From a phage, in the sequence record NC_101838.1: a stretch of 64,000 nucleotides of DNA. The stretch is one strand, 5' to 3'. A program made the translations under genes and the position numbers. Within the stretch, counting starts at the first letter, position 1; each line of letters opens with the position of its first letter. Positions 3,997 to 61,005 of the stretch are shown one piece after another. The notes below the pieces were generated by a model. That model had not been told where the DNA came from, made no database searches, and saw nothing but the letters and a program-made list of their open reading frames with translations.

Positions 3997-5037
3997 ATGT
4001 CAAAACCTAGTTTTCCATTAGAGATTTGGGCAGAGGAGGATCAGGTTCTGCCTAACACCCACAGACAGAACAGGCTACGCCCGATTGATGATTTGTGGAG
4101 AAAAGGTTGGGATCTTGGTCAAAAGCCCTCATGTGAAGAACTTAACTATATTTTCAATATGCTCGGAACTTGGGCAAAATACATTGCTGACGAGCAGATC
4201 CCCGCTCAAGAAGGCCGTTATCTGGTACGTGATAATAACTTGAGTGATCTTTTGAACATTCCTGTTGCCCGTAGAAACCTTGGGATTATTACTAAGGAAG
4301 AGGCAGACGCCAGGTATGTAAAAGTTACAGGTGATACAATGACAGGCCCATTGGGTTTGCAACGTATCAACTTTAAAGCTGCAGAGACAGATAAGGCTTG
4401 GATAGAGACAACTATTGGCCCAGATAAGACAACTCTCGACTTTGGGTTAAGTGATAATACTGGTTCGTTTGATGATGGTGGTACATCTACGGTAGATGCG
4501 TTTCGTTGGAGATTCCAGCCAACTCAGCCGGATATTAATCCAGAGTTCACTTTGATGTACCTTAACGCGATCACGGCTAACCGTGCGCTGTTGAAAGTGG
4601 TAGGCAATGTTGAAGTTGTCGATAACATGAGGTGCAATAACCTTACTATCAGCAATACAGCAACATTCACCAACTGTAATGTGGCTAGTCAGTTGACGGC
4701 TGGGTCAGTATATGTTAATGGTGGTGCAAGTTGTGACAGTATGGTTGTAAGAAGCCAGCACTGTGTTGTCGGTAACAGAAATGTGGTGCGCTCCGTGAAT
4801 GGAGTGACGGCTAACGGTAACGGTGATGTAACGATCACTATCCCGCAGACAGGTGTGCAAGACATCAGAATCGGTGCAAGACTTGTGGACGGCGTTTCTG
4901 AGTCTCCAATCCGCAACGGCTACGTTGTCACAGGCTGGCATTTCGGTGACAAAAAAGAGATGCGTGGTTCAACTTACTGGGCAGGACCTTTACAAAAACT
5001 TGTAAACGGTCAATGGATCACTGTTAATTATGCATAG
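3997..5037 (+). CDS. tail fiber protein, P2 gpH-like C-terminal domain
   Basis: C-terminus GWHF...LQKLVNGQWITVNYA resembles the P2 gpH tip (GWHF...IQKYINGTWYNV); conserved N-terminal PLEIWA...GW motif shared with the 6049 paralog; AGGAGA SD. Confidence 0.7.
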   Translation: MSKPSFPLEIWAEEDQVLPNTHRQNRLRPIDDLWRKGWDLGQKPSCEELNYIFNMLGTWAKYIADEQIPAQEGRYLVRDNNLSDLLNIPVARRNLGIITKEEADARYVKVTGDTMTGPLGLQRINFKAAETDKAWIETTIGPDKTTLDFGLSDNTGSFDDGGTSTVDAFRWRFQPTQPDINPEFTLMYLNAITANRALLKVVGNVEVVDNMRCNNLTISNTATFTNCNVASQLTAGSVYVNGGASCDSMVVRSQHCVVGNRNVVRSVNGVTANGNGDVTITIPQTGVQDIRIGARLVDGVSESPIRNGYVVTGWHFGDKKEMRGSTYWAGPLQKLVNGQWITVNYA

Positions 5038-6048: not shown

Positions 6049-7095
6049 GTGATGACTAAACCAGTTATCCCTCTTGATATTTGGGCCAATCAGGATGTTG
6101 TGCTTGAAAATACGGGAGAGTTGAATAAGTCTCAACCAAAAAAAGAAGAGAGATTGAAAGGTTGGGATATGACACAAAGAGTGGCATGTGAAGTTGTTAA
6201 CTTTGAACTTCACATGCTTTCTGCGTGGTTAAAGCATTTAACAGAAGATGTTGTCCCGGGATGGGATAATAGATTCTTAAGGGTCACTAATAATCTAGCA
6301 GACGTTCCAGACAAAGCTGCTGCACGTCAAGTTCTCAATGTATACTCGCCTGAAGAAATGGACGATCTATATATTGACAAGTCTGGAGACATAATGACTC
6401 AGACTCAAACTTTAGGTCTTCAAAGAATCGAGTTTGCATCTGCGTCAACAGACAATGCGGCAATATATACCACCATAACTCCAGACAAGACGACGATGGA
6501 TTTCTGGATTATGGACAACATCGGTGGTGCTGACGGCACAGACCTTGATGATCCTTCTCACCAAATAGACGGGTTCCGTTGGAGATTTCAACCTTCTGGT
6601 GGGCAGCCTGTGTTTTCGGCTATGAAGCTCAATGCTATAACTGCCAACCGTGCAAGACTGGCTATCCAAGGGAATCTTGAATGCAACGATGCAAAAAGTT
6701 CCTCTGCAAATGCCAATGCGGTCACGATACCAAGAGCCACTATTAATGGACAACAATCCTGCGGAAGCGCTCAAATAGGTGGAAGAGTTGATTGTAACGA
6801 TGAAACCGTCAGGGGCCAATACGCAACAGTTGGTGGAAGAAACGTGGTCCGCAGGGTAAATGGTAACGGCGCAGACAGTAGTGGTAACCTTACTATTCCT
6901 ATGCCTAGCAGAGGGGTTGATGATGTAAGGATAGCAAACCGTTTCAAAACCACCTACAGAGAGTCAAGAGTCTACCCTGGGCATGTGATGTGCTCTGGTA
7001 ACTACGCTTATAAACACCCTTATCAAGGTGACTACTGGACAGGTGCTATCCAAAAACTTGTAAATGGTCAATGGATCACTATATCTTATGCTTAA
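6049..7095 (+). CDS. tail fiber protein paralog, P2 gpH-like C-terminal domain
   Basis: Shares N-terminal PLDIWA...GW motif and C-terminal IQKLVNGQWITISYA with 3997..5037; central region divergent; ATG at 6052 after AGGAGA. Confidence 0.7.
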   Translation: MMTKPVIPLDIWANQDVVLENTGELNKSQPKKEERLKGWDMTQRVACEVVNFELHMLSAWLKHLTEDVVPGWDNRFLRVTNNLADVPDKAAARQVLNVYSPEEMDDLYIDKSGDIMTQTQTLGLQRIEFASASTDNAAIYTTITPDKTTMDFWIMDNIGGADGTDLDDPSHQIDGFRWRFQPSGGQPVFSAMKLNAITANRARLAIQGNLECNDAKSSSANANAVTIPRATINGQQSCGSAQIGGRVDCNDETVRGQYATVGGRNVVRRVNGNGADSSGNLTIPMPSRGVDDVRIANRFKTTYRESRVYPGHVMCSGNYAYKHPYQGDYWTGAIQKLVNGQWITISYA

Positions 7096-9135: not shown

Positions 9136-9161
9136 AACCGCTCCTGACGGGGCGGTTTTCT
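9136..9161 (+). terminator. intrinsic terminator
   Basis: Stem CCGCTCC / GGGGCGG with tetraloop TGAC, followed by TTTTCTT. Confidence 0.55.
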
Positions 9162-9176
9162 TACCTGGAGAACACA

Positions 9177-12100
9177 ATGCTTCCAATCCCTTTGCTAAAA
9201 CTTGGTCGTCATTTCCTCGATAAGAGGGGTGGAATTAAGGAACTTGCTGTTCTGTCATACCCAATAGACAACAGTGATGGTACAAGCAACACAGTATCCT
9301 ATGTAAATAGCTTAGCTATACTTTTTGATGATGGTCAGCTTAATATTACTGGCTATAATAGGTTCGGAGAGTGTCGGACTGGAGATCTTGATACAATAAA
9401 CTATCCTAATGAGGCAGCTTAGAACGTAGACCATGTTTGGAGAGCTGACCGTGCATTTGTAATCCGCACATTCGATAATAAATTTTTCTATATTGGTTGC
9501 ACAGCTGGTCTTATCGGATCGGAGGCAGCAGGTGGAAACGATGTTTGTGTCAGAGAGTGGACACCTTTGCCGGAACAGATCGTAACAGGGTTGCATTTGG
9601 ACACCCATCCTGAGAGACTTGTTGAAGTAATGGGTGGCGTAAACAATACAGTGTGGGTAATTGCTGCACCAGAGGCTGATGGTATGCTTCACCTGTACGG
9701 CTCTGGCAATAATACTTACGGCTCTCTTCATGTTGACAAAAGTCAACACGCTACTCCAGTTAAGATCGGTGAAACATCTGAAAGTCCAGAGACAGGTCCT
9801 TGGAAAAATCCAAGAATTAATTGTGAAGTTCATGACAACTCGGTTATTTTTGGTGGTCCTAACGGATTCTGGATTGCAGGTTACGATTTCTTAAGAAATA
9901 ACAGCAAAAACACACTAGTTTATCCAGCCGAGCATGTGACTCTTGACCAGTTTAAAGGCATCCCGGTGGGCGAGACATGGAAAGGGTTCATGTGTGGACC
10001 TAATGGTGCAATTATAGCCACAGAAAGGATGCACAAACCTGATGACCAACAGCTTGTTAACGTATTCTACGGGCAAGACGTCTGGGGAGATGACACATGG
10101 CGTTCCTTAAATATCACCTACACCCATGAGGTGATAATGGCTCGTGGATACGGCACAAGTGGCATTTTCTTCAATAATGGCACCAAACAGTATCGTGGCT
10201 TCTCTCGCAATCTGTGCAATGATATTGGTGCACAATCTGCAAACAACAGTCCTAGGGCTAATTTTATTCACTATCAGGCTCTGGCTACGGCTAAATACGT
10301 CGAGCAACGGATGCCAGTAAGCTGGACAGAAAGTGTTTATTTCCAGGGTATCCACAGAGAAGGTTTCTTAGGGACCTTTACTGTTGTTAATGGCAAACTT
10401 TGGTGGTCAGGCATCCCAAGGGGAAGTTTTGCAGGCTCTAATAACCTGTTTGGCGGCAGACTTAATAGTCAGGGGTTCACAGAGGTTCCTGAGAATTGGT
10501 ATAAAAATGTCCCAGTAGACAGTTGGGGCGTTGATGATATTTTCGACGTTAATGGTGTTAGTAGTGTTAGCAATATCTACATTGGTGACACGGTCAAGAT
10601 GAAATTGAAGCCTCAGCCAGAGGGGGCTACGTTCATTATTGACAAGATTGAGTTGGTAAATGCTGCAGGTACGGTTGTTACAGATGCAAATTACCAATTC
10701 TCCACCAACTGGAACCACGGTGGGGCCAACGAAGTTGTTGTTACCCAGTATAACAGAAATGTTAACAGACGTGGCCTGTACTCTGTAAAAATAACCTATC
10801 ATGACAAGCATGGCACAGGCAGAACCCATACGACAAGAACTTTGAACTGGAACACCATAGTTCCTGCGTATCCGTCCAACGGCAAGTGGCATACTGTCGG
10901 TAGAAACAAACAGTTCCATGTCAACGATACTGTATACTTCGGGCTTAACGCAGCTCAACCTGTTGTAGAAGGCGATACATCGTATATGGTACGACTCCAT
11001 AGAATGGATGCCGGGTCTGTAACCTACGATGTGACTCAAGAGATCTACGATCAGAGACGTACCACGTATGACAATGTTGTGAAAACACAAGCCTTGTGGG
11101 AGTTCAACCCTAACGGCAGAGGCGGTAAAATGTTGCAGGTCAACGAGCAAAACGGAACATCGTTGACTGTCCATGAACATCCAGATCCTTGGCCTGATCC
11201 TGGAAAACCTAACTCTGGGGCTCGTACACTGAAAATTGTCAGCCATGATGCAGGATATTTCGGAATACGCTGGGAAGCTACAGTAAGATATGTCGACGGG
11301 ACAACAAACAACATAGGGATTACACTTGGCGGCACTAGTGAAGATAACTCGCTGAAAATTGCCTACACGCCCAGAGGTATCTCTATTGATAATATGGATG
11401 TTGTTCGCAATGGTTACGGCGATGTGAATGTCAAAGTTACTCTTGGCGAACATCTTGGTGGGGAAAGGATCATCATGTATGCCTTTGATCATGATCCACG
11501 CACCAATGGAACTTATGCAAATCAGGCATGGAGTTACCTGATAAATGCACCTGAGCCGAATACTAAAGAGTTCTACTATGGTATGAAGCGAGATGTGTGC
11601 AAGAAAACAGGAACACATGACTGGATTGCTATCTGCGTTAAAGATGAGCGCACAGCTTGGGATGAACCTGTTAACAGATGGTTCATAGGTATTCCTACCA
11701 GAAGTGATAAGTATGTCGCAGAATATATTGTATGCATGGGTGGTACCAACCTGAACATGTGTTGGAACGAGGATGCAAACAAATACTCTGATTATGACTA
11801 TATGAGGGATTACTCTTGTAATCAGTGGTTTAACCAATCAACAGGATACCCTCCACGTCAGGCGAGAGTAAACCCTGCAATCTTCACAGATACGCAGGTT
11901 TTCTTGACAAAACAGGCCAACGAGGTTCAGACCTTCAAGAATAAATACGATCCTAACAAGTGGTTCTACAACTGTTACGGCGCATTTTTCTGGGGACCTG
12001 GTGAGTTACCTGGTGGAGGATCTTGCTTGAATGAGGCAACTTACGCCAGTGACTACATCATGGGGCAGGTCAAGAAGTATAAGATAATCCCCGGTCCTGA

Positions 12101-14804
12101 GACTCTGGGCAATGCCGTTGACCCTTATATCATCATGACTGCACTGAGATCAAACATGGACGGGACATCCATGTCTATGCAAATTCCGGTAACAAACGGG
12201 TACAAACGTGTTGTGATGATCATTAAGTGCGACTTAATAGGTAAACAAGTTCTTGCAGAAAACGGGACATCCACACATCCTTTTGAGATTGCTCTGCACT
12301 ATCAGTTTGCTGACTCGCCTTTTGCAGGTGATAAGAGAATATCTGATACAGATACACAGCGTTGTAAGAAAGTATTGTTGGGTGCAGGTTGGTGGTGGTA
12401 TGAGTTTGATTTAACAGACAAATTCACCGACACATCTAAAGTTGTAACAGGACTTCGTCTAGACCTTGGCGAGAACATGCACAAAGCTGTTTGTGATGGC
12501 ACCTATGGTGACCCTACAATATACCTAAAATATATTTCTTTTGAGCATCCGGAAGATGTTGTCTATGGTCCAAAACTGAGATTGTTTGGCAGTTGGATTG
12601 CAAAAGATAGGGTAGGCATGGGTAAGAAGGTAAGAGGGTTCTTGGTTGATGCAGGAACAGAAGACATGCTGGTTAATGCAGTATGGCCTGAATTACCTGG
12701 GACTCAGTGGGACAACTCAGCCAAATCTATAAACTGGTTTAACATTCATAGGGCCATGTGGACCACTAACTGCTACTTGTGGAGAGAGCTTAACGATCAG
12801 GCCTTTGGATTCAGCGATGGTAGAAGGATGGCGATCATTTGCTGGACAACACTGCAAAGATGTTATGACCATGACTATGAGATTGGGGGCAGGGCATGGA
12901 AAAATATCAGAGATAGAATCATAACCAATTTTGCAGACGACAACGGTGGTGGAGCACATAACTTTGGCACAAGCCGACTCATCCATTTGAACGGATCCTC
13001 AGCCTACAAGAAAGAAGGTTACTCTGGGTCTATGATCGAGTGGGGTCTGGTGAAAGATGCTCGTGTATTGATGGGCCAGCAACTTGCTGCTGCAATAGGT
13101 CCTAGTGCAGTGCAGTCTGCTAAACCAGCGTGGTTCGATATCCCATTATGGTCCTCTGGAACACCAGGGGCTGCTGCAATCAACCCTACCACTGGGGATC
13201 TGGAAATCTCCTGGGAAGACCTGAAGCAGGTCGGTGGCTGGGATAAGACCGGGTACCAGGTGCAGTGGTGGAGGGCTGACGGATCTTTAGCCGCTGATGA
13301 GTTTGTTAAGGACAATTTCTACACTATGTCCTCTGCAAAAGCACAGGAATTGTTCGGTCAGGCAACTCCGTCAACGATCACCATGTCTATGTGCTGTAAA
13401 GACAACAGGACTGGAGCTTTGGGGCCAAGGGTTGCTAAAGTTTTCTCAGGTATTAAATGGAATCTACCTGTCCAAAGTATTTCATGGAAGCAAATAGGTG
13501 ATAACAAGCTGCTGGTTACCCCTGCCTGTCAGTTCAACGCAACTCTTAACGTTGATCCTGCTGTTGCGGCAAACTCAGCTAAAGCTTCTGACTTCTCTGT
13601 GTCTAACACTGCTATGGCAGATGTGAGGAAGATTGACACGCTGAACGCCAGAATTACCTGTAAAAACACTTATGGCACATTCCAAATCATCAACAACTTC
13701 ACAGATGCTGATTCTAAGGTAGTGAGGACAGCAAGCCAGACTCTGAGTTTAGGAACTCTGGCCTATGCGGCCCTGATCACCGAGCAGTCGGCAACACTCC
13801 AAGGAGGTGGTGTAGGCAAGTCCATTGCAACACCTGTGTGGAAGCCAAATGAGTGGGTTGTGTTTGATTTGACTGTGGACTTCTCCAGCGATAATAACTG
13901 GACATGGGTAAGGAATTGTTTGTCACAATTGATGGGCGGTCCAAGCTCCGTTAGTGATAGTCACGACTCTACTGACCCGAGTGTGTTCCAGGTAGGTAAA
14001 ACTCACCCAGAGACTGGAGAAACGTTGCCTGACAGGAAGTATGCGTTGGTTTGCATCTCTTACGGGAAGGCAGATGTCACATTCTCAGGGACACACACTT
14101 ATAACGGAACTTACAACTTCTCAAGGAAGTATAGTCTCAAAGCAGGGAACATTATAGACGAGGTCGGTGTGCTGTATAATCCGGGCAACGGCATAGGGAT
14201 TGTGGGCGGTAAACTGCAGATGCAGGAACCTTCTATCACCCCTTCCAACGTATCCGGGATTAGAAAGACTTGGGAAAGTAGTAATACCAACATTGCAACA
14301 GTGGATGCCACCACAGGGCTGGTAACATTTAAAGCTACTGGGAATGTCACCATAAAGTTTGTAGTTAGAGATGATGCAGGCCGCAAAACGTCTTCAACAT
14401 CGTTTACTGTCAGACAGATGGCACCTCAGTGGTTTATTTGGGAAGGAAATCCTCTTGACGGGGCTTACCCTAGACCTGCAGGAACGTCCAATATGAGGGT
14501 CTTTACCGGTCCGGTCATGAACAATCCGACCACAACCACCAACCCTACATTTTTTGGTGCTTACATACCTGAAATTATTGGCCTACCAAGGAACCAGATA
14601 CAACTGCTTTTCGGAGCAGGTGTTGATGGTCTAGCCACTTTTGGGTACAGTGACAACATTGATGCAGCCAGAAGCTCGGGTTGGATTGGATTTAAGTTTC
14701 AGTGGAACCCTGGTGGTAGAACATTAGGTGTTGCAAGCATAGGTGTTATGCTACCTGGTAACCAGCAATACCATCTCGAAGCTTATACAAACTTCCCTAG
14801 TTAA
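9177..14804 (+). CDS. giant RCC1-like-repeat adhesin / host-range protein, interrupted by in-frame TAG at 9420-9422
   Basis: ATG at 9177 with GGAG SD; ORFs 9177..9422 and 9567..14804 are in the same frame with a single TAG and no other stop between; RCC1-like Gly repeats on both sides; ORF-track start at 9567 is TTG without SD. Confidence 0.5.
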
Positions 14805-14816
14805 CAGGAGGCAAAT

Positions 14817-14846
14817 AAAAAGGGGCCAGACGGCCCCTTTCTTTTT
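14817..14846. terminator. bidirectional intrinsic terminator between convergent genes
   Basis: AAAA-GGGGCC-AGAC-GGCCCC-TTTCTTTTT; A-run upstream and T-run downstream. Confidence 0.6.
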
Positions 14847-34609: not shown

Positions 34610-36677
34610 ATTTATGGCATCTGCATACAACCGTTTCGGTGAGCCAAACCCGAAAGCAACTAAGTATAAAAGCGGGGGAAGTGTGAAACGAGACTATCGT
34701 GATGAAAAAGAAGTTGAAACTGTAGAGACTGTTTTAGAAAATACTAAAATTGTCCCTGTCCCACAACAAAATATCGGTCTGATGGCTGCACAATATTTTG
34801 GTGTGCGATCAGCATTGTCCCAAGAAGACGGTGTGACAGTCACTGCAACATATTTCCCATATTACGACCGCTACGGAAATCTGTCCGGTTTCAAAAAGCG
34901 CGACTGGACGATTCCTAAAGAGCAAAGGGGCCATTTCTCCGTTGTTGGCATAGTAAAGGCTAACTCTCAGATGTTTGGTCAAAAGCTGTGTGCATCTTCC
35001 AACAACCGTAAGCAGATTAACGTTTGTGAGGGAGAAGGTGATGTTATTGCAGCATGGCAGGCTGCATATCAGATACAAGTAAAAGGGATTCTCACCAACG
35101 CTAAAGCCCCGGCAAAGGTGAAGCAGTGGGCTAAAGAGGTCCAGGACGGGATCGACGCAGTTATCAACGGTGGTGATCTGGCAGGAAAACCCTGCCTGCC
35201 TTTTGTTGGAATTAACTGTGGATGTGCAAACGCAGTAGATACTTTTGCAAACAATGAGAAGTTTATCCGCAGCTATGGAACAGTTGTGCTGGCAATGGAT
35301 AACGATGCAGCTAACGAGGTAGAGAAGCAAAAACACGTCATTAAAGGTGTTGAGGCCACGCACAATATCGCAGCATTTTTGATGGCTGATAACGTTTACC
35401 ACGTAGAATACCCTGGTGAAGTAAATGACCCTGACGGGGTAAAAGATATCCGTGACATGCTGAAGGCTAAAAAGCTGGAAGATATTGTCAACATGTTCCG
35501 GCACCCTGTTAAATATGTGCCTGATGCTGTGTCGGATTTAGAAGACTTCTCTATCGAGTCTTTGCGGAAAAAGACTTCCAACGGGGTAGATATCAGCGCA
35601 GAGTTCCCAAAACTGCAAAAAATGCTAAAAGGCTTGCACAAAGGGACACTCGTAATGCTTACAGGGCCATCAGGGGGCGGTAAAACAACTGTAGCTAAAA
35701 AACTGGAACATTGTATTGCAAGATACCTAATGGACCCGACATGCCCGAAGGCTGATGACTATGAAGAGGATGATCGTCTATGTATGATCCATCTTGAGGA
35801 GGACCCAGAGGAAGCAATTAACTCCTTGTATGCAAACCAGTTAGGGTTTGATGTTAAAGAGTTTGTTGAAGATCCTAGCCAGTTTTTAACTGATCAAGAA
35901 CACGCAGAGATTCACCAATCATGGGCAAAAGCTGGAAAAATCAAAGTGTTCAAACATTTCGGATCTATTCCGGTGGACGAGTTGATTACCAAGCTTAAGC
36001 AAATGGTTTGCCTGTACCATTGCCGTTATATTGTGCTGGATCACCTGTCCATGGTAATTTCAGGGCTTAATGTTAAGGATGAGCGAAAAGAACTGGACAT
36101 GGCTATGACTCAGCTGGCTGCGTTTTGTAAGCAGTTTAACGTGTTTATCTTGGTGATCGCTCACCTCAAACGTACAGAGATTGTGCCTCCTAAGGACAAG
36201 GATGGTAACCCGTTACCTTTCTGGTATCCTGTGCGAAAAGAGAATTTGCGAGGATCGGCGGGGCTTGAACAGTTGAGTTGGGTAGTCATAGGTGTCGAGG
36301 CCGAAGAAATGGTGGATCGTTCTCGTGGACGTGTCCGTCTGGTAGGTCTTAAAAACCGTCCAGCAAAAACTCTAGGTATTGCTGACACTTTGGTTATGGA
36401 CCCGCACACAGGTAAGTTCCATGATGCCAGTAATTGGTACTGGGACAAAGAAATGCAAATGTTTACAGACGGAGAAGGTGGGGAGGTTGTTTGGAGACCT
36501 CAGGCTATGTTTGAGGATCAGGAGCATGCAGTTGTAGAAACACCTATGGGCAAGGTTGTGGCTGATAAGGTTGTAACTCCTACTGTTAAGCCTGTTGACA
36601 CGCAGGAAGACCTCCAGTACGATGATCCATCCTCTGACCCGGTCCCTGGTTTTGAGGATGATGAAACGCCTTTTTAA
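34599..36677 (+). CDS. DNA primase-helicase (TOPRIM + DnaB/gp4-like helicase)
   Basis: TOPRIM VCEGEGD; Walker A GPSGGGKTT, Walker B YIVLDHL; AAGGAG SD. Confidence 0.75.
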   Translation: MGSKFMASAYNRFGEPNPKATKYKSGGSVKRDYRDEKEVETVETVLENTKIVPVPQQNIGLMAAQYFGVRSALSQEDGVTVTATYFPYYDRYGNLSGFKKRDWTIPKEQRGHFSVVGIVKANSQMFGQKLCASSNNRKQINVCEGEGDVIAAWQAAYQIQVKGILTNAKAPAKVKQWAKEVQDGIDAVINGGDLAGKPCLPFVGINCGCANAVDTFANNEKFIRSYGTVVLAMDNDAANEVEKQKHVIKGVEATHNIAAFLMADNVYHVEYPGEVNDPDGVKDIRDMLKAKKLEDIVNMFRHPVKYVPDAVSDLEDFSIESLRKKTSNGVDISAEFPKLQKMLKGLHKGTLVMLTGPSGGGKTTVAKKLEHCIARYLMDPTCPKADDYEEDDRLCMIHLEEDPEEAINSLYANQLGFDVKEFVEDPSQFLTDQEHAEIHQSWAKAGKIKVFKHFGSIPVDELITKLKQMVCLYHCRYIVLDHLSMVISGLNVKDERKELDMAMTQLAAFCKQFNVFILVIAHLKRTEIVPPKDKDGNPLPFWYPVRKENLRGSAGLEQLSWVVIGVEAEEMVDRSRGRVRLVGLKNRPAKTLGIADTLVMDPHTGKFHDASNWYWDKEMQMFTDGEGGEVVWRPQAMFEDQEHAVVETPMGKVVADKVVTPTVKPVDTQEDLQYDDPSSDPVPGFEDDETPF

Positions 36678-36735
36678 TGTTTAACAAAGAGTGGGAGGGG
36701 TAGTACAACCGCCTCCCCTTTAAGGAGAACTGTAT

Positions 36736-39513
36736 ATGAGTATGTGGTCTTTCGATTTTGAGTCATCCGGTTTGCTGGAAGACCCAGATCTTTATTATCA
36801 CTGCGGTCTGTTTAAAGAGCTGAATAAGAACCGTTTTATGCTGTTCCTTCCTCTAAATGACCGCACACACTACTCCGAGGAGGATATAGAAAAGGCTAAG
36901 AACTTCATTCTGGCAAAGAAAACTCTTTATAAAGATTTTGAAGTTCGCATAGCAGATTTTTCGGAGTTGGAAGGTTGGCTTACAGGCAATTCTGACTGGT
37001 CACCAACAGCTTTGAACTGCCATAACTGCTACAGTTATGACTTTATGCTAATGGAAAGATTATCCGGTATTCATTTTGATATGTTCCGTGATCCTAAATG
37101 CATGGGGACTATCAACGACCACCAGGTTAACCTGTTTGATACGTTGGCGATGAGCAGAATCTTGTGGCCTGATCGCCCTTTACCAAAAGGTTGTCCGGAC
37201 TCTGTATTCAACCCGGTTACTAAGAAAATGCAGCCTGTTGGTCCTCACGGCCTTATGGCATGGGGCTACGCCCTTGGTAACCAGAAAGTTCAAATTGATG
37301 ACTGGCGAGATCTTCCGTTGTGGAAGTATGTGGATCGTGTATTCGAGGACGTTATCATCCAGGAGCTGCTCTGGAAAGAGCTGGTAGCGGAATCAAAAGG
37401 TGTATTCTACGGCAAATCTGACATGCAGAACTTTATGTACGATCCAGCCAAAGAGAAGCCGAAAGGGTTCAAGAAAATCACCTGGAAGAACGCATTACGC
37501 CGAGGCATGCTGCAGCACTTCCTGATGGAGCTGCAGGCCCGTCAGGGTGTGTATTTCGACATAGATGGGGCTATTGCTTTACGTGACCGTTGCGATGCGT
37601 GGATGAAAGAGATCGCTGATCGTGTTGAACCTCAACTTCCTTTAAAAGAGTTGTCAATGTCTCAGCGGCCCAAGTTCCCTGAAAAGCCGTTTAACCAAGA
37701 TGGGACAATCTCCAATAATGGTTGGAAATGGTTAAAAGATAAGCTTGGCTATCCTGTAGACATGAGCGCTTTAGAATTCAAAGCCCCGCCTAAGCGAGCA
37801 TTTACCTCCACAGGAGATGTCAGCAAGATGGGGATAAAATGGTGCGAAGAGATGGGCTGCAAAGACCCCGACAAGATGGCTGATTTCTTGAGAGGTTATA
37901 TTAAGGGCACCTCCACACCACAACCTTTACCTAAAGAGCTGATGGATCAGGCAATAAGTGATCTGCAGCAGAAGCGAATGCCTGACTGCAAGATACCTAT
38001 GAAAATCAGCAATCAGGACGACATTAAGCGATACCTGATCAGTGCTGGTTGGCTTCCGACAATGTGGAGAACTAAGGATGTAACTAAGGACAGCAAGAAG
38101 AAAGCTCTACCTGATGCAGATGTTGATGCACGAGTATATGCATACATGGACGAGCTTTTAGAGTCAGAGTATTGTGACCTAATTATCAACTTCTGGAACA
38201 AAACTGATGCTAAGTTTCAGACAACAGTGCACAAGTTCCGAAGCTTTCCTAACTCCGAAAGGATTAAAAAGGAAGTGTTCGGGAAAATACGCAGAAAAGC
38301 CAGGGCACTTATTACTTCTCCGCAACTGAAAGATACGTTTGGACACCTATGTCCGAATCTTGAAAAATTGAACGGAGAGATGGCTAAAGATATCGTCTTG
38401 TGGTTATCATTGCGAAACCGCAGATCGGTCCTTGATCCAATCAAGGAGGATAAGGTTGATACTGGTCTTCTTAATCACCCACGTTTGAAGATTGACCATA
38501 AGCTTCCTGCTAAAAGCTCTGGATTAACAAACACTTCCCGACAGAAACACAGTATTTGTGCAAACATGCCTAAACCATCTCCTAAAGTGGTTATGGGTAA
38601 AGAGATGCGTAGCTTGTGGGGTGTTCCTCCTGGATATTTTGAGATCGGTATTGACGGGTCCAACTTAGAGCAGCTTATCGGGGCTTGGGGTGCCTTTGAG
38701 TTCGACAACGGCTTGTACTATGATGTTGTAAGTAACGGAGACGCACACCAAAACAATGCTGAGGCATATACAAAAGTAGCAGGCAGAGAGGTGTCTCGTA
38801 ACGACGGTAAACCTATCACGTATGGGGTTATGTACGGGGCACAAAAAGATAAAGTTGCAGATATGCTGGATATCTCCCCAGAGTTGGGGCAAAGGGTGAT
38901 CGATGCACTTTGGGATGCCAACCCCGGTCTTAAGGGGCGCAAAGAGGATCTGGAGAAATTCTGGGAAGCAACAGGTAAGAAGTTTATCTACTCTTTTGAT
39001 GGTCATGCTATCTGGACCCGATCTAAACACTCTTTACTTAATGCATACCAACAAAATGGTGGTGCATCGCTGTGTGACTTAGTTGGGATACTCATGCACC
39101 ACCAAATGGTGAAGCGTGGGTGGTACGATGAAGGTGTCCGTCGTATTATCTATTACCATGACGAATATCAGCTTCAAGTGCCTGACACACCGAAGTATAA
39201 GACTGTGTACACCTTCGACACAATTGAAGAACTGGAAGCATTTAAGGCAGAGCAGGAAGCCAAACTTCATGTGTTCGACGGTCATAAGTACAAAAAGGCA
39301 CGCAAGGATGAGGACGGAAACGAAGTGGTTGACAGAGACGGAAACACGGTGTACGATCCTATCCTGAACGATGACGGAAAGCTTGAACTTATCTGGAGCC
39401 CTGTGGGTGAAATGGTGGTGCATTGCTTCTGGCAAGCTTCTAAAATGATGGGAGTCCCGTTCCAGATCACAGGTGAATACTTGTGTGGTCGTAACTGGGG
39501 TGATTGTCACTAA
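36736..39513 (+). CDS. family A DNA polymerase with 3'-5' exonuclease
   Basis: Exo I FDFESSGL; Pol A motif A GIDGSNLEQL, motif B RNDGKPITYGVMYG, motif C YYHDE. Confidence 0.8.
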   Translation: MSMWSFDFESSGLLEDPDLYYHCGLFKELNKNRFMLFLPLNDRTHYSEEDIEKAKNFILAKKTLYKDFEVRIADFSELEGWLTGNSDWSPTALNCHNCYSYDFMLMERLSGIHFDMFRDPKCMGTINDHQVNLFDTLAMSRILWPDRPLPKGCPDSVFNPVTKKMQPVGPHGLMAWGYALGNQKVQIDDWRDLPLWKYVDRVFEDVIIQELLWKELVAESKGVFYGKSDMQNFMYDPAKEKPKGFKKITWKNALRRGMLQHFLMELQARQGVYFDIDGAIALRDRCDAWMKEIADRVEPQLPLKELSMSQRPKFPEKPFNQDGTISNNGWKWLKDKLGYPVDMSALEFKAPPKRAFTSTGDVSKMGIKWCEEMGCKDPDKMADFLRGYIKGTSTPQPLPKELMDQAISDLQQKRMPDCKIPMKISNQDDIKRYLISAGWLPTMWRTKDVTKDSKKKALPDADVDARVYAYMDELLESEYCDLIINFWNKTDAKFQTTVHKFRSFPNSERIKKEVFGKIRRKARALITSPQLKDTFGHLCPNLEKLNGEMAKDIVLWLSLRNRRSVLDPIKEDKVDTGLLNHPRLKIDHKLPAKSSGLTNTSRQKHSICANMPKPSPKVVMGKEMRSLWGVPPGYFEIGIDGSNLEQLIGAWGAFEFDNGLYYDVVSNGDAHQNNAEAYTKVAGREVSRNDGKPITYGVMYGAQKDKVADMLDISPELGQRVIDALWDANPGLKGRKEDLEKFWEATGKKFIYSFDGHAIWTRSKHSLLNAYQQNGGASLCDLVGILMHHQMVKRGWYDEGVRRIIYYHDEYQLQVPDTPKYKTVYTFDTIEELEAFKAEQEAKLHVFDGHKYKKARKDEDGNEVVDRDGNTVYDPILNDDGKLELIWSPVGEMVVHCFWQASKMMGVPFQITGEYLCGRNWGDCH

Positions 39514-39562
39514 TGTAAACTATCAGCACAGGGAGGTGCTGTTGAGCAAAGAGGAGACTTTT

Positions 39563-42692: not shown

Positions 42693-43918
42693 TGAGCGTT
42701 ATTCAACAATTCGCTAACCCGATGAATCCGCGTGAAACTGTTTTACTGGCTCACGGCATGATTAAACGTGTCAGCATCAAGCCTATCAAAGGTGCTGATC
42801 CTACAACAGGTATTAAAACCACTGTGTGGCAAGGTAAGAAAATTGAATCCAGCCACACCATCTCTTTACTGATTTCTGAACTGGATTCCTCTGATAACCT
42901 GCTTCAAGGTGGTGAAGAAGTTTGGATCAGCATGGGTGATAAGCTGCTTAAACCTGGTCATCAAGACTCTGTCTCTGTTAAAATTGATGACAAGTGGGAA
43001 ACCGTAACGCCGGGATGGATCGTAAATATCCCTTTGAAGGCAAACGAGCATAACGGTAAGACCTATTACAAAGGCTCACTGGCTAAGATGGTCAAGCTGG
43101 GTGCAGGAGAGGCTCCAGCAGCGACTCAGCAGCAAAAACAGCAACAAGGTGCACAATCACAAGGCCAGAAGCAGAAACCTCAGCAGAATGCCAATCAGGA
43201 CGTTTTACGCATCTATGGCGATGTGACTCAGATTGTTGGCAACGTGGTTACTGTTAATGACCACAAGATTGGCGAAGGTGCTATGGTTGTAACTGATGAG
43301 CAGCTTAAAGACCTGGTGGTAGGTGGTCGTGTTGCAGCCATTGTTGACAAAGACACCGGAAACATTATCAGTGGTTTCAAAGCCTATCCCCCTAAGGCAG
43401 AGAACGGCACTCAAGGCTCCGGTGGCAAGCGTAAATCCTCTTACGACCCTATCGGTGTGGAAACGGGGCATAGCATCAATGCGTTGCAGATCATCCTGGA
43501 TCGCGGGTTTAAGGTAGACGACCCACTGGGCGTGGCTAAAACACTGCACGTAGTCACCATTGAGCTTAAGAAAGAGTATGCTCAAGCCACCAACCGAACT
43601 GAAGATGAAGTAGGTGCCAGTGTCGGTAATGCGGTGTTGAACGCTTGTCGCCGTATTGACAAGAAAACGAAAGTTGATGATTTTGCAGCGGCAATTACTG
43701 CAGAAGCAAAAGATGTCTTGACTAATCTGGCTGAACCGTTGTACGATTGGATCAAGAACGGTGCTGGGTCAACTGACTATCAAGAACCCCAGGCTGCCAA
43801 ACAGGAAGCAGCTCCACAGCAAAACACTGTAGACGCTCCTCCTGTAAATGATGAGGAAGATGACCCAATGGATCAGAATCCAGCACAGTACACCTTTGAT
43901 GATGACATCCCTTTTTAA
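42692..43918 (+). CDS. single-stranded DNA-binding protein-like, with SSB-type acidic C-terminal tip
   Basis: C-terminus ...YTFDDDIPF matches the bacterial SSB tail DDDIPF; Gln/Pro-rich linker precedes it. Confidence 0.55.
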   Translation: MSVIQQFANPMNPRETVLLAHGMIKRVSIKPIKGADPTTGIKTTVWQGKKIESSHTISLLISELDSSDNLLQGGEEVWISMGDKLLKPGHQDSVSVKIDDKWETVTPGWIVNIPLKANEHNGKTYYKGSLAKMVKLGAGEAPAATQQQKQQQGAQSQGQKQKPQQNANQDVLRIYGDVTQIVGNVVTVNDHKIGEGAMVVTDEQLKDLVVGGRVAAIVDKDTGNIISGFKAYPPKAENGTQGSGGKRKSSYDPIGVETGHSINALQIILDRGFKVDDPLGVAKTLHVVTIELKKEYAQATNRTEDEVGASVGNAVLNACRRIDKKTKVDDFAAAITAEAKDVLTNLAEPLYDWIKNGAGSTDYQEPQAAKQEAAPQQNTVDAPPVNDEEDDPMDQNPAQYTFDDDIPF

Positions 43919-43933
43919 CATCTAGTTAACATA

Positions 43934-43961
43934 GCCCTGCCCGAAAGGGTGGGGCATTTTT
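43934..43961 (+). terminator. intrinsic terminator (copy 2 of repeated hairpin)
   Basis: GCCCTGCCC-GAAA-GGGTGGGGC followed by ATTTTTG; same hairpin as 33799. Confidence 0.55.
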
Positions 43962-43980
43962 GTATAAGGAGATCTGAAAA

Positions 43981-58081: not shown

Positions 58082-58501
58082 ATGAACATTAAATCTAATA
58101 ATCCGGCATATAGCTTTGATAACGCTTTTTGTCACGGTCCGGCGGCGAAAGGATTCGAAATCGATGGTAAACTAATTATTGTCAATGTTGACGGGGAAGA
58201 GGTTGCAGTATATCCGGTGGCAGACGTAAAAAGCCGTTTACAATGCCGCATGGATGTTACCGCCTATCAGCTTGATCCGGTTCGCATAGTTGCCCTGGTC
58301 CTGGAAGAAGAAATTAAAGCCATGCACCATAGCAACAGGTTTATTGGTGACGCTCAGGATAATATGAAGGTGTGCCGCCATAAAGTTAATGAAGTGCTTA
58401 AAGAGTACGGCTATAAAGATCTTATGATCAAACGTGATGAAAAATTCCGCTACCGTAACGACCTGGCAAATCGGATTTTTGAAATATACGAATCATTATA
58501 A
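58082..58501 (+). CDS. hypothetical protein (139 aa)
   Basis: TAAGAGG SD. Confidence 0.55.
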   Translation: MNIKSNNPAYSFDNAFCHGPAAKGFEIDGKLIIVNVDGEEVAVYPVADVKSRLQCRMDVTAYQLDPVRIVALVLEEEIKAMHHSNRFIGDAQDNMKVCRHKVNEVLKEYGYKDLMIKRDEKFRYRNDLANRIFEIYESL

Positions 58502-58519
58502 TTTTTTAACTGAATTATC

Positions 58520-58545
58520 AAGGGGCTTAGCCCCTTTCTTTTTGT
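58520..58545 (+). terminator. intrinsic terminator ending the rightward small-gene module
   Basis: AAGGGGC-TTA-GCCCCTT followed by TCTTTTTGT. Confidence 0.6.
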
Positions 58546-59149
58546 CTGCTCTTCCCCCTACCATAAACGGCCCTACCTGGAAAGTGGAATAATTGACGAG
58601 CCATCAATCCCACACACTGTACAAACATACATGTAAAATAGCTATTGCATAACCTTTCATTGTGTGGTAGCGGTGCTATTTTTTACCAGTTTTCCTTCCA
58701 AAATTGCACGTAATGCAGCTATTGCATAAATTTTAACCTGATGCATATCTTCAATATCTTGTCAACAAATAAAAATTCTTATAAGTCATACACTTATACC
58801 CCCACAAAAGCGTTCTCTACGTGAAAAATCGGGCATAACTATAGCCGCCAGATCTCAGAATTTACGTACGCTCGCCATTCTATAGCCTGCTAAGTATTTA
58901 TTCCAACCATAGAATAATGGAATAGTCAATACCTGAATAAAATAATTATTCGTTTAAACTGCATAACATAAATCAGCTCAGGTGTCAACATTTTTCGTAA
59001 ACAGTCTTAAATTGTCACTGTGAGTTATCATAAACAGAGAAATCTTTAGTCGTCTAATGTTTACTGTACGTTACTATACTGACTGGAATCATTAGATGAC
59101 TAATAGAAAGATAAGAAATAATTAACGATACAATTATTTTACCTGTAAC

Positions 59150-59400
59150 AATAAGGCAACTATGCAAACGAATGGCATGGCGCGACGGAGTCGCGACATA
59201 ATATAAAAGCAGTAACCATCACCCCCGTGATAGTTTGTCTGCAAACTATTAATCAGATCATAGTTGCCTTGTATTTAGTTAATCATGACATAACAAGCAA
59301 GGCAACTATAGATCTTCTAATAGTTGCCCTGCTTTTATATTATGTCATGCTAATTATAATCAGTGCGATTATTGTCATGCAAACGAATGGCATGGCTTAT
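59150..59400. repeat. non-coding region of nested direct and inverted repeats
   Basis: 20-bp direct repeat ATGCAAACGAATGGCATGGC at 59162 and 59377; 18-bp inverted repeat GACATAATATAAAAGCAG at 59195 / 59329; GGCAACTAT in alternating orientation 4 times; palindrome CGCGAC-GGA-GTCGCG. Confidence 0.5.
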
Positions 59401-59458
59401 CATCTCTGTGTAAACAATCTATGCGTGAACAGTGAAACATGAAATAATAACAGTCGTT

Positions 59459-59515
59459 ATTGTGTCAAGTATTCCGATTGTGTCACCATTGTGTCTAAAG
59501 TGTCATATTGTGTCA
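59459..59515. repeat. iteron array: 5 copies of (T/A)TTGTGTCA at about 10-bp spacing
   Basis: TATTGTGTCA 59459, GATTGTGTCA 59477, CATTGTGTCT 59487, AAAGTGTCA 59497, TATTGTGTCA 59506. Confidence 0.5.
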
Positions 59516-60089
59516 GACAAGTTTTTCTCCTCTTTGTCAAGTGCTGCATGAAAAATTTACAAACTGGTATGGTAGCATTTTTGCGGACCTGTTTACATTC
59601 AGGAGTGTATGTATAATCCTTGTTGTGTGGGCGTTTATACGTCTGGACGGTCAGAAGTCTGCAGGTTAATATCTAATCTATTGGCTGCTAACTATATCCC
59701 ACACAAATGATAAGAAATATAATTGTTATATGCGTAAACTGTAACTCATGTTATCAATCCCTGTATGGATCGCCAGTGGTGCGCATAATGGGTATTATGT
59801 TAAATTGCCCGTAATGATAAAGGTTCTCACAATGATAGGTATTCTCATTCACCCTCACAAAATAGATTGCAAATGTTGTGCCACTGTGTGAACGGCCTCA
59901 CCTATTAATTTGCCTCACTGCCTCGATATTTGAGAATTATTATAAGAATGAGAAGTATTCCCATTCCGTCCGCCTGGCAGCACTCCTGTAGGTCCTGCAA
60001 GGACTCTAGCTTTCAGCTAGACCCTTCGGGCCTCCCTGTAGGTCAGGTCAAAATCGGGGTAGAATTGGGCCTATTCAGATATTTCTGGC

Positions 60090-60330
60090 TGACTCTTCAG
60101 GTCTGTGTGGGAAAAGCCAACCTCTCCGGCGGGGCAGGGGGATATCTGCGGGAAAATTGCAGGTCAATTAAAAAATTTACGTGGTATATGAAGCGCTCTT
60201 CAGGTAAGGCATGTATTATGGGATGAAACCCTCTTCAGGCAATGATATTTGTGGGTGTGATATTTGCTGGAAAGCCAGATATGACGGGACTCCCGGCGGG
60301 GCAGGGGTGGTACAGACAGGGAAAATATGA
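60090..60330. repeat. two degenerate tandem units carrying CTCTTCAGG and CCGGCGGGGCAGGGG motifs
   Basis: CTCTTCAGG at about 60095, 60197, 60232 (and 60645); CTCCGGCGGGGCAGGGGG at 60124 and CTCCCGGCGGGGCAGGGG at 60291. Confidence 0.4.
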
Positions 60331-61005
60331 AGGATGTGGTTGGGTAGATTGATCAGACAGGTAGAGTATGGAATATGTTACAAGTATGTTAAATATGGAG
60401 GTTGAATATCTGTAGGATTTGTGTGTAAAATCAAAGACTTAAGTGGTGTTGTGGTATTTTCTATAAATAATTCAAGTTTAATAGGCAATATTTGTCTCTA
60501 TCCGCTTTGTGTGGTAAACAGATTCAGATTAGATTGGTTTACAAGTGTATACATAATATACAAATTAAAGATACAAGAAACCCCCCCTCCCCCCTTCGGC
60601 TACCATTCACCTTTTCCTCTGACTGGTACTTAAACACTTATTCAGACTCTTCAGGTTATCACCCATATATCATATGGCAGTGACTGGTGTCCTCCGGCCC
60701 CTCTTTCGTCACCCGTCCGCTTCGCCATGCTAATGCCATAGCTAATGGTTCGGTTGTTCACCCTGTTCACTCAGGTGTATCTCTATACCCCTTCAAACCG
60801 AAGAGAACAGAAAACCCGAATTACTCGGTAAAAGAAAAGAGAAGAACTTAATTTTATCAGGATAGGCAAGAATGTCAAGGTATGACTGCTCACTAAACAA
60901 GCAAACAGTCATGTGTGGGAGGTAAGTGATTGTGGTGGTAGGAAATTTAGTTGAAAGATGTGTTATAGGTGCTTCCAGCACTTTAGCCGGGCAGCTAATT
61001 GTGTG

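Follow-up and report, generated by a model that had tools for sequence, protein, structure and literature searches.

A recent Trp82-to-amber mutation as the probable cause of the split lateral tail fiber gene of Escherichia phage nomine

We analyzed a 64,000-nucleotide (nt) stretch of sequence record NC_101838.1, hereafter called the window, which derives from Escherichia phage nomine (MN850649), an rV5-like myovirus of the genus Vequintavirus with a genome of 137,991 bp. The gene in question, at 9177-14804 on the plus strand, encodes a putative lateral tail fiber and is interrupted early by a stop codon. Translation from ATG 9177 to 14804 gives a frame of 1875 codons in which TAG at 9420-9422 (codon 82) is the lone internal stop, in agreement with the initial annotation of this DNA, which had described one TAG in an otherwise continuous frame. 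In our judgment, this stop is most likely real and of recent origin, an amber null mutation of Trp82 in a lateral tail fiber gene that is conditionally dispensable, and hence an ordinary loss of function with no signal of recoding.

Origin of the in-frame stop

In GenBank, the gene is split into nomine_39 (QHR76207.1, 81 amino acids [aa]) and nomine_40 (QHR76208.1, 1745 aa, starting at TTG 9567), both of which match the window sequence exactly, and both GenBank and RefSeq label the two as hypothetical proteins. The program-made list of open reading frames also cuts the region in two, into 9177-9422 (81 aa) and 9567-14804 (1745 aa, with a TTG start).

The signals in front of the gene are intact. 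The Rho-independent terminator of the upstream fiber gene lies at 9136-9162 on the plus strand, with a hairpin at 9136-9157 followed by a U-run; this hairpin was overlooked by a pattern-based terminator scan and confirmed by folding (dG -16.7 kcal/mol, z -3.9), and the terminator is kept in all relatives and annotated in HdK5 and Alma. It is followed by a Shine-Dalgarno (SD) sequence, GGAG, at 9167-9170, which is separated from the ATG at 9177-9179 by a 6-nt spacer and is identical in 8/8 relatives. Sequence and folding thus agree with the initial placement of ATG 9177 behind a GGAG SD just after a terminator. Codons 1-81 (9177-9419), which constitute nomine_39, are the sole part of the gene expected to be efficiently translated, whereas codons 83-1875 and the terminal stop (9423-14804) still form an open frame that translation from the native start would no longer reach.

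Comparison with related phages indicates that the TAG is derived. Codon 82 is TGG, encoding Trp, in all eight aligned relatives, including FV3 and EduardKellenberger, which have 84-87% nt identity in this stretch (FV3, 84%); the terminator, SD and ATG are kept in every one of the eight, and residues 1-165 are almost invariant. When a 61-nt probe centered on the TAG was searched, all 62 matching phage records aligned at 98.4% identity, i.e., with one mismatch, while no record was identical and none carried the TAG. The closest ortholog, bas51_0041 of phage WalterGehring, differs from the nomine gene at only 7 of 5628 nt, which comprise 3 synonymous changes, 2 missense codons and 1 nonsense change, the latter being the G-to-A substitution at 9421 that distinguishes the nomine TAG from TGG. 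Because the 1793 codons downstream of the stop have not decayed, as reflected in these few differences, the mutation is likely very recent. Further, when about 85 WalterGehring coding sequences (CDSs) were compared with the window, a stop within the alignment was found in the fiber gene alone, and the others were intact. The recent nonsense mutation that the initial annotation had listed among several options is therefore the option favored by TGG in 8/8 relatives, TAG in 0/62 records and the small distance to the nearest ortholog.

Regarding the two missense codons that separate nomine from WalterGehring, one is A1060T (window 12354, a G-to-A change like the nonsense one) and the other is G1451C (13527-13529). 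An intact version of the protein, 1875 aa long, was found in a third-party annotation (TPA) entry named 'Escherichia coli' (P0013, HCN3189136.1), the source of which resembles a Vequintavirus genome contained in the assembly of an E. coli isolate. This protein differs from that of nomine only at W82, V136I, E266K and T1060A; it is thus without A1060T but has the Cys of nomine at 1451. That HCN3189136.1 represents nomine itself was ruled out, since three residues besides W82 differ. No match was found among the E. coli genomes that were scanned. Exact-pattern scans for the TAG allele in viral, genome and metagenome contigs also returned nothing, but these are uninformative, as the wild-type pattern was absent from the viral and metagenome collections as well.

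Two further sequences were considered as possible second cases of a stop at this codon. Contig L014, the one other contig returned by an exact look-up of the 81-aa product, was rejected, because it stops at '...GCT TG' and has the wild-type G. Protein P0006 (Logan; two contigs, the longest of 85,227 bp) is likewise 81 aa long but is encoded by another, V18-like allele of the fiber gene; it ends exactly before Trp82, so that it could be either a second stop at codon 82 or a contig-end artefact like L014. If the stop in P0006 is real, it could mean that codon 82 has been hit recurrently; however, a single step would turn any of 517 codons of the fiber gene into a stop, and one would therefore not expect codon 82 to be truly hit again.

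Identity and domains of the fiber gene

The gene at 9177-14804 is orthologous to rV5 gp27. The window has matches at 80-99.9% identity in more than 110 phage records, and the gene is present in about 120. In rV5, HdK5, JeffSchatz and WalterGehring, the ortholog is a single CDS of 1875-1878 codons that starts exactly at the equivalent of ATG 9177, and in relatives it is labeled 'Ig-like domain-containing protein' or 'lateral tail fiber protein with intimin domain' (BASEL collection). PHROG 15684 spans the ortholog from residue 1 to residue 1874 (E=0) and is also matched by the 81-aa fragment alone (E=6.5e-47). Given the match of PHROG 15684 over nearly the entire length and the number of phage records with the gene, 9177-14804 is not a chance open frame. 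Its likeness to rV5 gp27, bas51_0041 (WalterGehring) and bas54_0041 (MaxBurger) of the BASEL collection, and PHROG 15684 is that of full-length collinear orthology, with 99.9% nt identity between nomine and bas51_0041, and it extends to the position after a gp28-like fiber gene, the shared terminator, SD and ATG, the Big_2 domain, and the convergent genes downstream. By contrast, nomine has TAG instead of TGG at codon 82 and lacks the uninterrupted frame of about 1875-1878 codons that characterizes the family. Therefore, the nomine copy is either a pseudogenised family member or a conditional null.

Judging from its sequence, the gene appears to encode the largest lateral tail fiber/adhesin, predicted to comprise an N-terminal RCC1-like module, a long unannotated middle and a C-terminal Big_2 immunoglobulin (Ig) domain. 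The last of these, an intimin-like domain at residues 1682-1733 (14220-14375 on the plus strand), is the lone Pfam domain above threshold. A sequence search of the PDB with the fiber protein gave marginal matches only (intimin and an S-layer Ig domain), and a search for homologous proteins gave only two.

The N-terminal module, at residues ~45-236 (9309-9884 on the plus strand), resembles a diverged RCC1-like beta-propeller and includes codon 82, placing Trp82 inside it. The Pfam scores of the fiber protein itself are far under threshold, with 20 bits for PF25390 against a cut-off of 150 (residues 45-199) and 13.5 for PF13540 against 22. However, an exhaustive HMMER search showed that residues 1-200 form a module common to proteins of ~850 aa, 7 of which reach the PF00415 threshold, and another match of this search, P0047, is a textbook 7-blade RCC1 protein (E=1e-103 for PF25390). 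Aligning the module profile with P0047 using hhalign gave 92% probability and E=6.7e-7 over residues 47-236. AlphaFold2 (AF2) models were of low confidence, with predicted local distance difference test (pLDDT) values of 38.7 (single-sequence) and 43.5 (8-sequence), too low to assign the fold firmly; in a Foldseek comparison with the PDB, the top 17 matches were all RCC1-like domains, although with template modeling (TM) scores of just 0.16-0.28. Profile, homologs and fold search together support a real but diverged RCC1-like module. In comparison with known RCC1 propellers (PF00415, PF13540, PF25390; e.g., RCC1, UVR8 and the HERC2 RLD), residues 47-236 of the nomine fiber align to RCC1 blades, whereas no more than about 3-4 blades can be recognised, the fiber protein itself scores below the Pfam thresholds and the structural model is of low confidence.

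The product had initially been described as a giant RCC1-repeat adhesin. This description is only partly apt: RCC1-like sequence does occur on both sides of the TAG, but it is limited to residues ~45-240 of 1875, about the first eighth of the protein, and the product is predicted to be a lateral tail fiber of the virion that carries a Big_2/intimin-like Ig domain at its C-terminus.

Some database entries related to the gene are unusual in their attribution. A 318-aa 'hypothetical protein, partial [Eggerthella lenta]' (P0002) is 99% identical to residues of the fiber, and assembly contamination is likely. Similarly, 15-18 'Campylobacter phage' records (MG0656xx, host C. jejuni) share 92-99% identity over the locus with E. 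coli Vequintaviruses and are probably mislabelled or contaminant.

Tolerance to the loss of the fiber

Vequintavirinae have three sets of lateral tail fibers, and it was suggested that they are effectively monovalent on K-12, with the enterobacterial common antigen (ECA) as primary receptor and the lipopolysaccharide (LPS) core as terminal receptor (PMC8594841). In a HIDEN-SEQ transposon study of Bas54, the genes bas54_0026, _0027, _0028, _0031 and _0041 tolerated disruptive insertions and are therefore dispensable for K-12 infection and for making virions that are infective, while some Bas54 fiber genes were conditionally essential on clinical isolates (bioRxiv 10.1101/2025.11.20.689424). We verified that bas54_0041, from phage MaxBurger, is the ortholog of the gene at 9177-14804.

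A bidirectional terminator hairpin lies 3' of the fiber gene at 14819-14846 (no strand assigned), and convergent minus-strand genes come next. The fiber gene is thus the final gene of the fiber operon or transcription unit, ended by a strong terminator, the hairpin of which is at 14819-14840, and followed by convergent genes, and therefore a premature stop in it is expected to have no polar effect.

In our reading, the G-to-A transition at 9421 turned Trp82 (TGG) into amber TAG, and translation from the native SD and ATG would consequently stop after 81 residues, inside the N-terminal propeller, with only this stub being made efficiently. The remaining 1793 codons would stay untranslated, save for trace natural read-through or inefficient re-initiation yielding products that miss part of the N-terminal module. 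Virions of nomine would accordingly be assembled without the gp27-type fiber and would still be infectious on K-12 through other fibers. Such a phage would stay viable because Vequintaviruses have several alternative fibers, because the gp27-type fiber is unneeded on K-12, and because there is no polarity. The mutation may have been present already in the wastewater from which nomine was isolated (sample 23A, Lemvig; Olsen et al., 2020), or it may have been fixed during the isolation, which consisted of two overnight liquid enrichments on E. coli K-12 MG1655 (PMC7552041).

The closest paradigm is laboratory lambda (lambda PaPa), which, as far as the summary in PMC12617516 relates, lost its side tail fibers through a frameshift in stf (Hendrix and Duda, 1992). 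In both cases, an accessory fiber that is unneeded for plaques on K-12 is affected by one small mutation in a K-12-propagated phage. However, the lesion in nomine is a nonsense substitution and not a frameshift, and nomine is a myovirus with several alternative fibers. For the nomine mutation, moreover, an origin in the laboratory and an advantage are possible but conjectural.

Recurrent inactivation in orthologs

To survey lesions across orthologs, matching phage records were sampled evenly, giving 46 annotated records, and each split copy was aligned to an intact reference. The gene was split in 8 of the 46, and independent lesions were found in at least nine assemblies other than nomine, comprising 3 nonsense mutations, 4 frameshifts and 2 deletion-bearing genes. 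The nonsense mutations are Y617* (TAC to TAG) in ECP26, Q1439* (CAA to TAA) in phita32, and W558* (TGG to TGA) in the 61-kb Logan contig SRR22133733_6753, the frame of which is otherwise open. The frameshifts are a 2-nt deletion at codon 1052 in ime, a 1-nt deletion in a G-run at codon 762 in naswa, a 1-nt deletion at codon 207 in Alma, and a 1-nt insertion in a T-run at codon 396 in YP-6. As for the deletion-bearing genes, APECc02 has a 1-nt insertion at codon 114 plus a 2956-nt deletion, whereas V18 has several deletions and is generally degraded. All of these share with nomine the independent inactivation of the same orthologous gene; they differ from it in that every lesion is at another position, that some are homopolymer indels, and that V18 and APECc02 have large deletions. 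Three further frameshifted variants are present in the protein cluster of short N-terminal fragments to which P0006 also belongs. A TAG at codon 102 in L022 (SRR22878019) was not counted as firm, as the assembly is noisy throughout. Like nomine, both ime and naswa were obtained in the K-12 enrichment study, and 3 of the 12 Vequintaviruses of that study carry a lesion.

For comparison, other genes were surveyed as controls; since these share a few bases with adjacent genes, two features are the baseline for them, which partly confounds the counts. The surveys gave no splits in a 2.07-kb fiber gene, at most 2 in a 2.08-kb primase/helicase gene, and 2 in another dispensable fiber gene of 3.8 kb. 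Per kb, breakage of the target relative to the controls amounted to a rate ratio of 2.8 (p=0.07), or 4.9 (p=0.03) with V18 excluded. Sequencing errors may account for part of the indels but hardly for the four clean nonsense substitutions, that of nomine included. With at least ten independent lesions, it is conceivable, although we consider it rather doubtful, that Vequintaviruses grown on rough laboratory E. coli preferentially lose the gp27-type fiber, a loss that could be adaptive where the receptor is absent.

Alternative explanations

Several points weigh against a genuine null mutation as the explanation of the nomine stop, or limit what can be built on it. The lysate of nomine was sequenced without plaque purification, and a consensus error or a mixed population keeps a small probability. 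The phage's own tRNA cluster (5 tRNAs per PMC7552041) is outside the window, and the scan for suppressors covered the window and the WalterGehring genome. Further, the absence of the fiber from nomine virions is something that we infer from the sequence, and the excess of broken copies over the controls is only suggestive. Four alternatives were weighed, which in order of decreasing likelihood are sequencing error or polymorphism, suppression or read-through, two separate genes, and phase variation.

First, the stop might be a sequencing or assembly artefact or a polymorphism within the lysate, in which case the real population would have TGG at codon 82 or be mixed and the deposited consensus would be wrong. 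In addition to the lack of plaque purification, this would fit the presence of G at the position of 9421 in every relative, and it may be noted that some of the other split copies are homopolymer indels that could be errors (naswa and YP-6) and that one of the assemblies in which the gene is split is noisy over its whole length. However, the nomine lysate was sequenced by Illumina Nextera XT at 255x coverage (PMC7552041), and consensus substitution errors are very rare at such depth. The site context, GCAGCT-TAG-AACGTA, is non-repetitive and has no homopolymer, and no other defects were found among ~85 window genes. A sequencing error, which the initial annotation had also put forward, is thus unlikely at this coverage.

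Second, amber suppression or read-through, brought about by a phage or host suppressor tRNA or by the context of the stop, might produce useful amounts of full-length fiber. The perfectly intact downstream frame would be in line with such a function, but it is equally what is expected of any very recent mutation. The base after TAG 9420-9422 is A, and an A after UAG is a context that favors suppression; likewise, the tRNA-Tyr (GUA) of relatives is one anticodon change short of an amber suppressor. On the other hand, the TAG is unique to nomine and is not conserved in homologs, hence no evolved read-through signal is possible. TAG is also the normal terminator of 6 of 80 window genes, and an in-frame TAG is present in no other of the ~85 genes compared. 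ARAGORN detected no tRNA in the 64-kb window, and no CUA tRNA was found in the complete genome of WalterGehring, the closest relative, which has the anticodons tct, gta, tga, tgt, cat and tgg and one aberrant call. The isolation host MG1655 is not known to carry an amber suppressor. Taken together, these results make the read-through by a suppressor tRNA proposed in the initial annotation very unlikely.

With respect to the WalterGehring tRNA cluster (L010 41706-41993), the record has a 97-nt tRNA-Lys at a place where ARAGORN called a 'tRNA-???' of 99 nt, its anticodon (atcc) being four bases long; ARAGORN also called a tRNA-Ser (tga) that is without annotation in the record.

Third, the two halves might be real genes, with the product of 81 aa and a second one of 1745 aa, made by re-initiation at TTG 9567, both being functional, as the GenBank annotation of nomine_39 and nomine_40 would have it. 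TTG 9567 is the first in-frame start past the TAG, but it lies 145 nt after the stop and has no GGAG upstream, and it had already been suspected on account of its missing SD. The alignment of homologs, in which starts near 9567 were also looked for, strengthens this suspicion, since all of them are single CDSs that begin at the equivalent of ATG 9177, and residues 1-165 are nearly invariant among them. Moreover, as the RCC1-like module spans residues ~45-236, a product begun at residue 131 or later would miss part of it. We regard two functional genes as highly improbable.

Finally, a phase-variable contingency locus, which the initial annotation had also named and in which the stop would toggle reversibly to switch host range, has a negligible likelihood even though the gene is a host-range determinant with inactivating lesions in many lineages. 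The nomine change replaces one base where the sequence is non-repetitive and offers no hypermutable tract, and the lesions of other phages are scattered over ten different positions and are of different types, which is the signature of random loss and not of a switch.

Implications

If the Trp82-to-amber substitution is accepted as a null mutation, nomine_39 and nomine_40 together constitute a single tail fiber gene that a nonsense mutation has broken, which matters for annotation. The gene family, the dispensability of the fiber, the general phenomenon and the split in GenBank were already known, and what is new here is modest: the recognition of nomine_39 and nomine_40 as one amber-disrupted fiber gene, and a catalogue of independent lesions in its orthologs. 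No new mechanism of gene expression is revealed. Nomine would be expected to be without one receptor-binding fiber and so may infect a narrower range of hosts than WalterGehring and other near-identical relatives do. More generally, the finding of 8 broken copies among 46 is relevant when broad-host-range Vequintaviruses are chosen for typing, biocontrol or therapy. Should recurrent loss prove to be adaptive, the status of this fiber could serve as a marker of domestication, and it could be a hidden cause of host-range differences among near-identical therapeutic phages.

Other features of the window

Upstream of the fiber gene, the window has two paralogous short tail fiber genes (3997-5034 and 6052-7092; ~42% identical) on either side of a gene for a tail-fiber chaperone, an arrangement also described for rV5 gp30 and gp33. 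At 36677-39560 and ~43915-43980, three homing-endonuclease genes of WalterGehring (bas51_0076, _0078 and _0090) are missing from the window, and the DNA polymerase region appears to be free of introns and homing endonucleases. A CDS-poor region of ~2.4 kb at ~58500-61000, between oppositely transcribed gene blocks, has short non-ATG open reading frames only. It corresponds to an intergenic region of ~2 kb in Bas54 from which no transposon insertions were recovered (bioRxiv 10.1101/2025.11.20.689424), which suggests an essential non-coding function.

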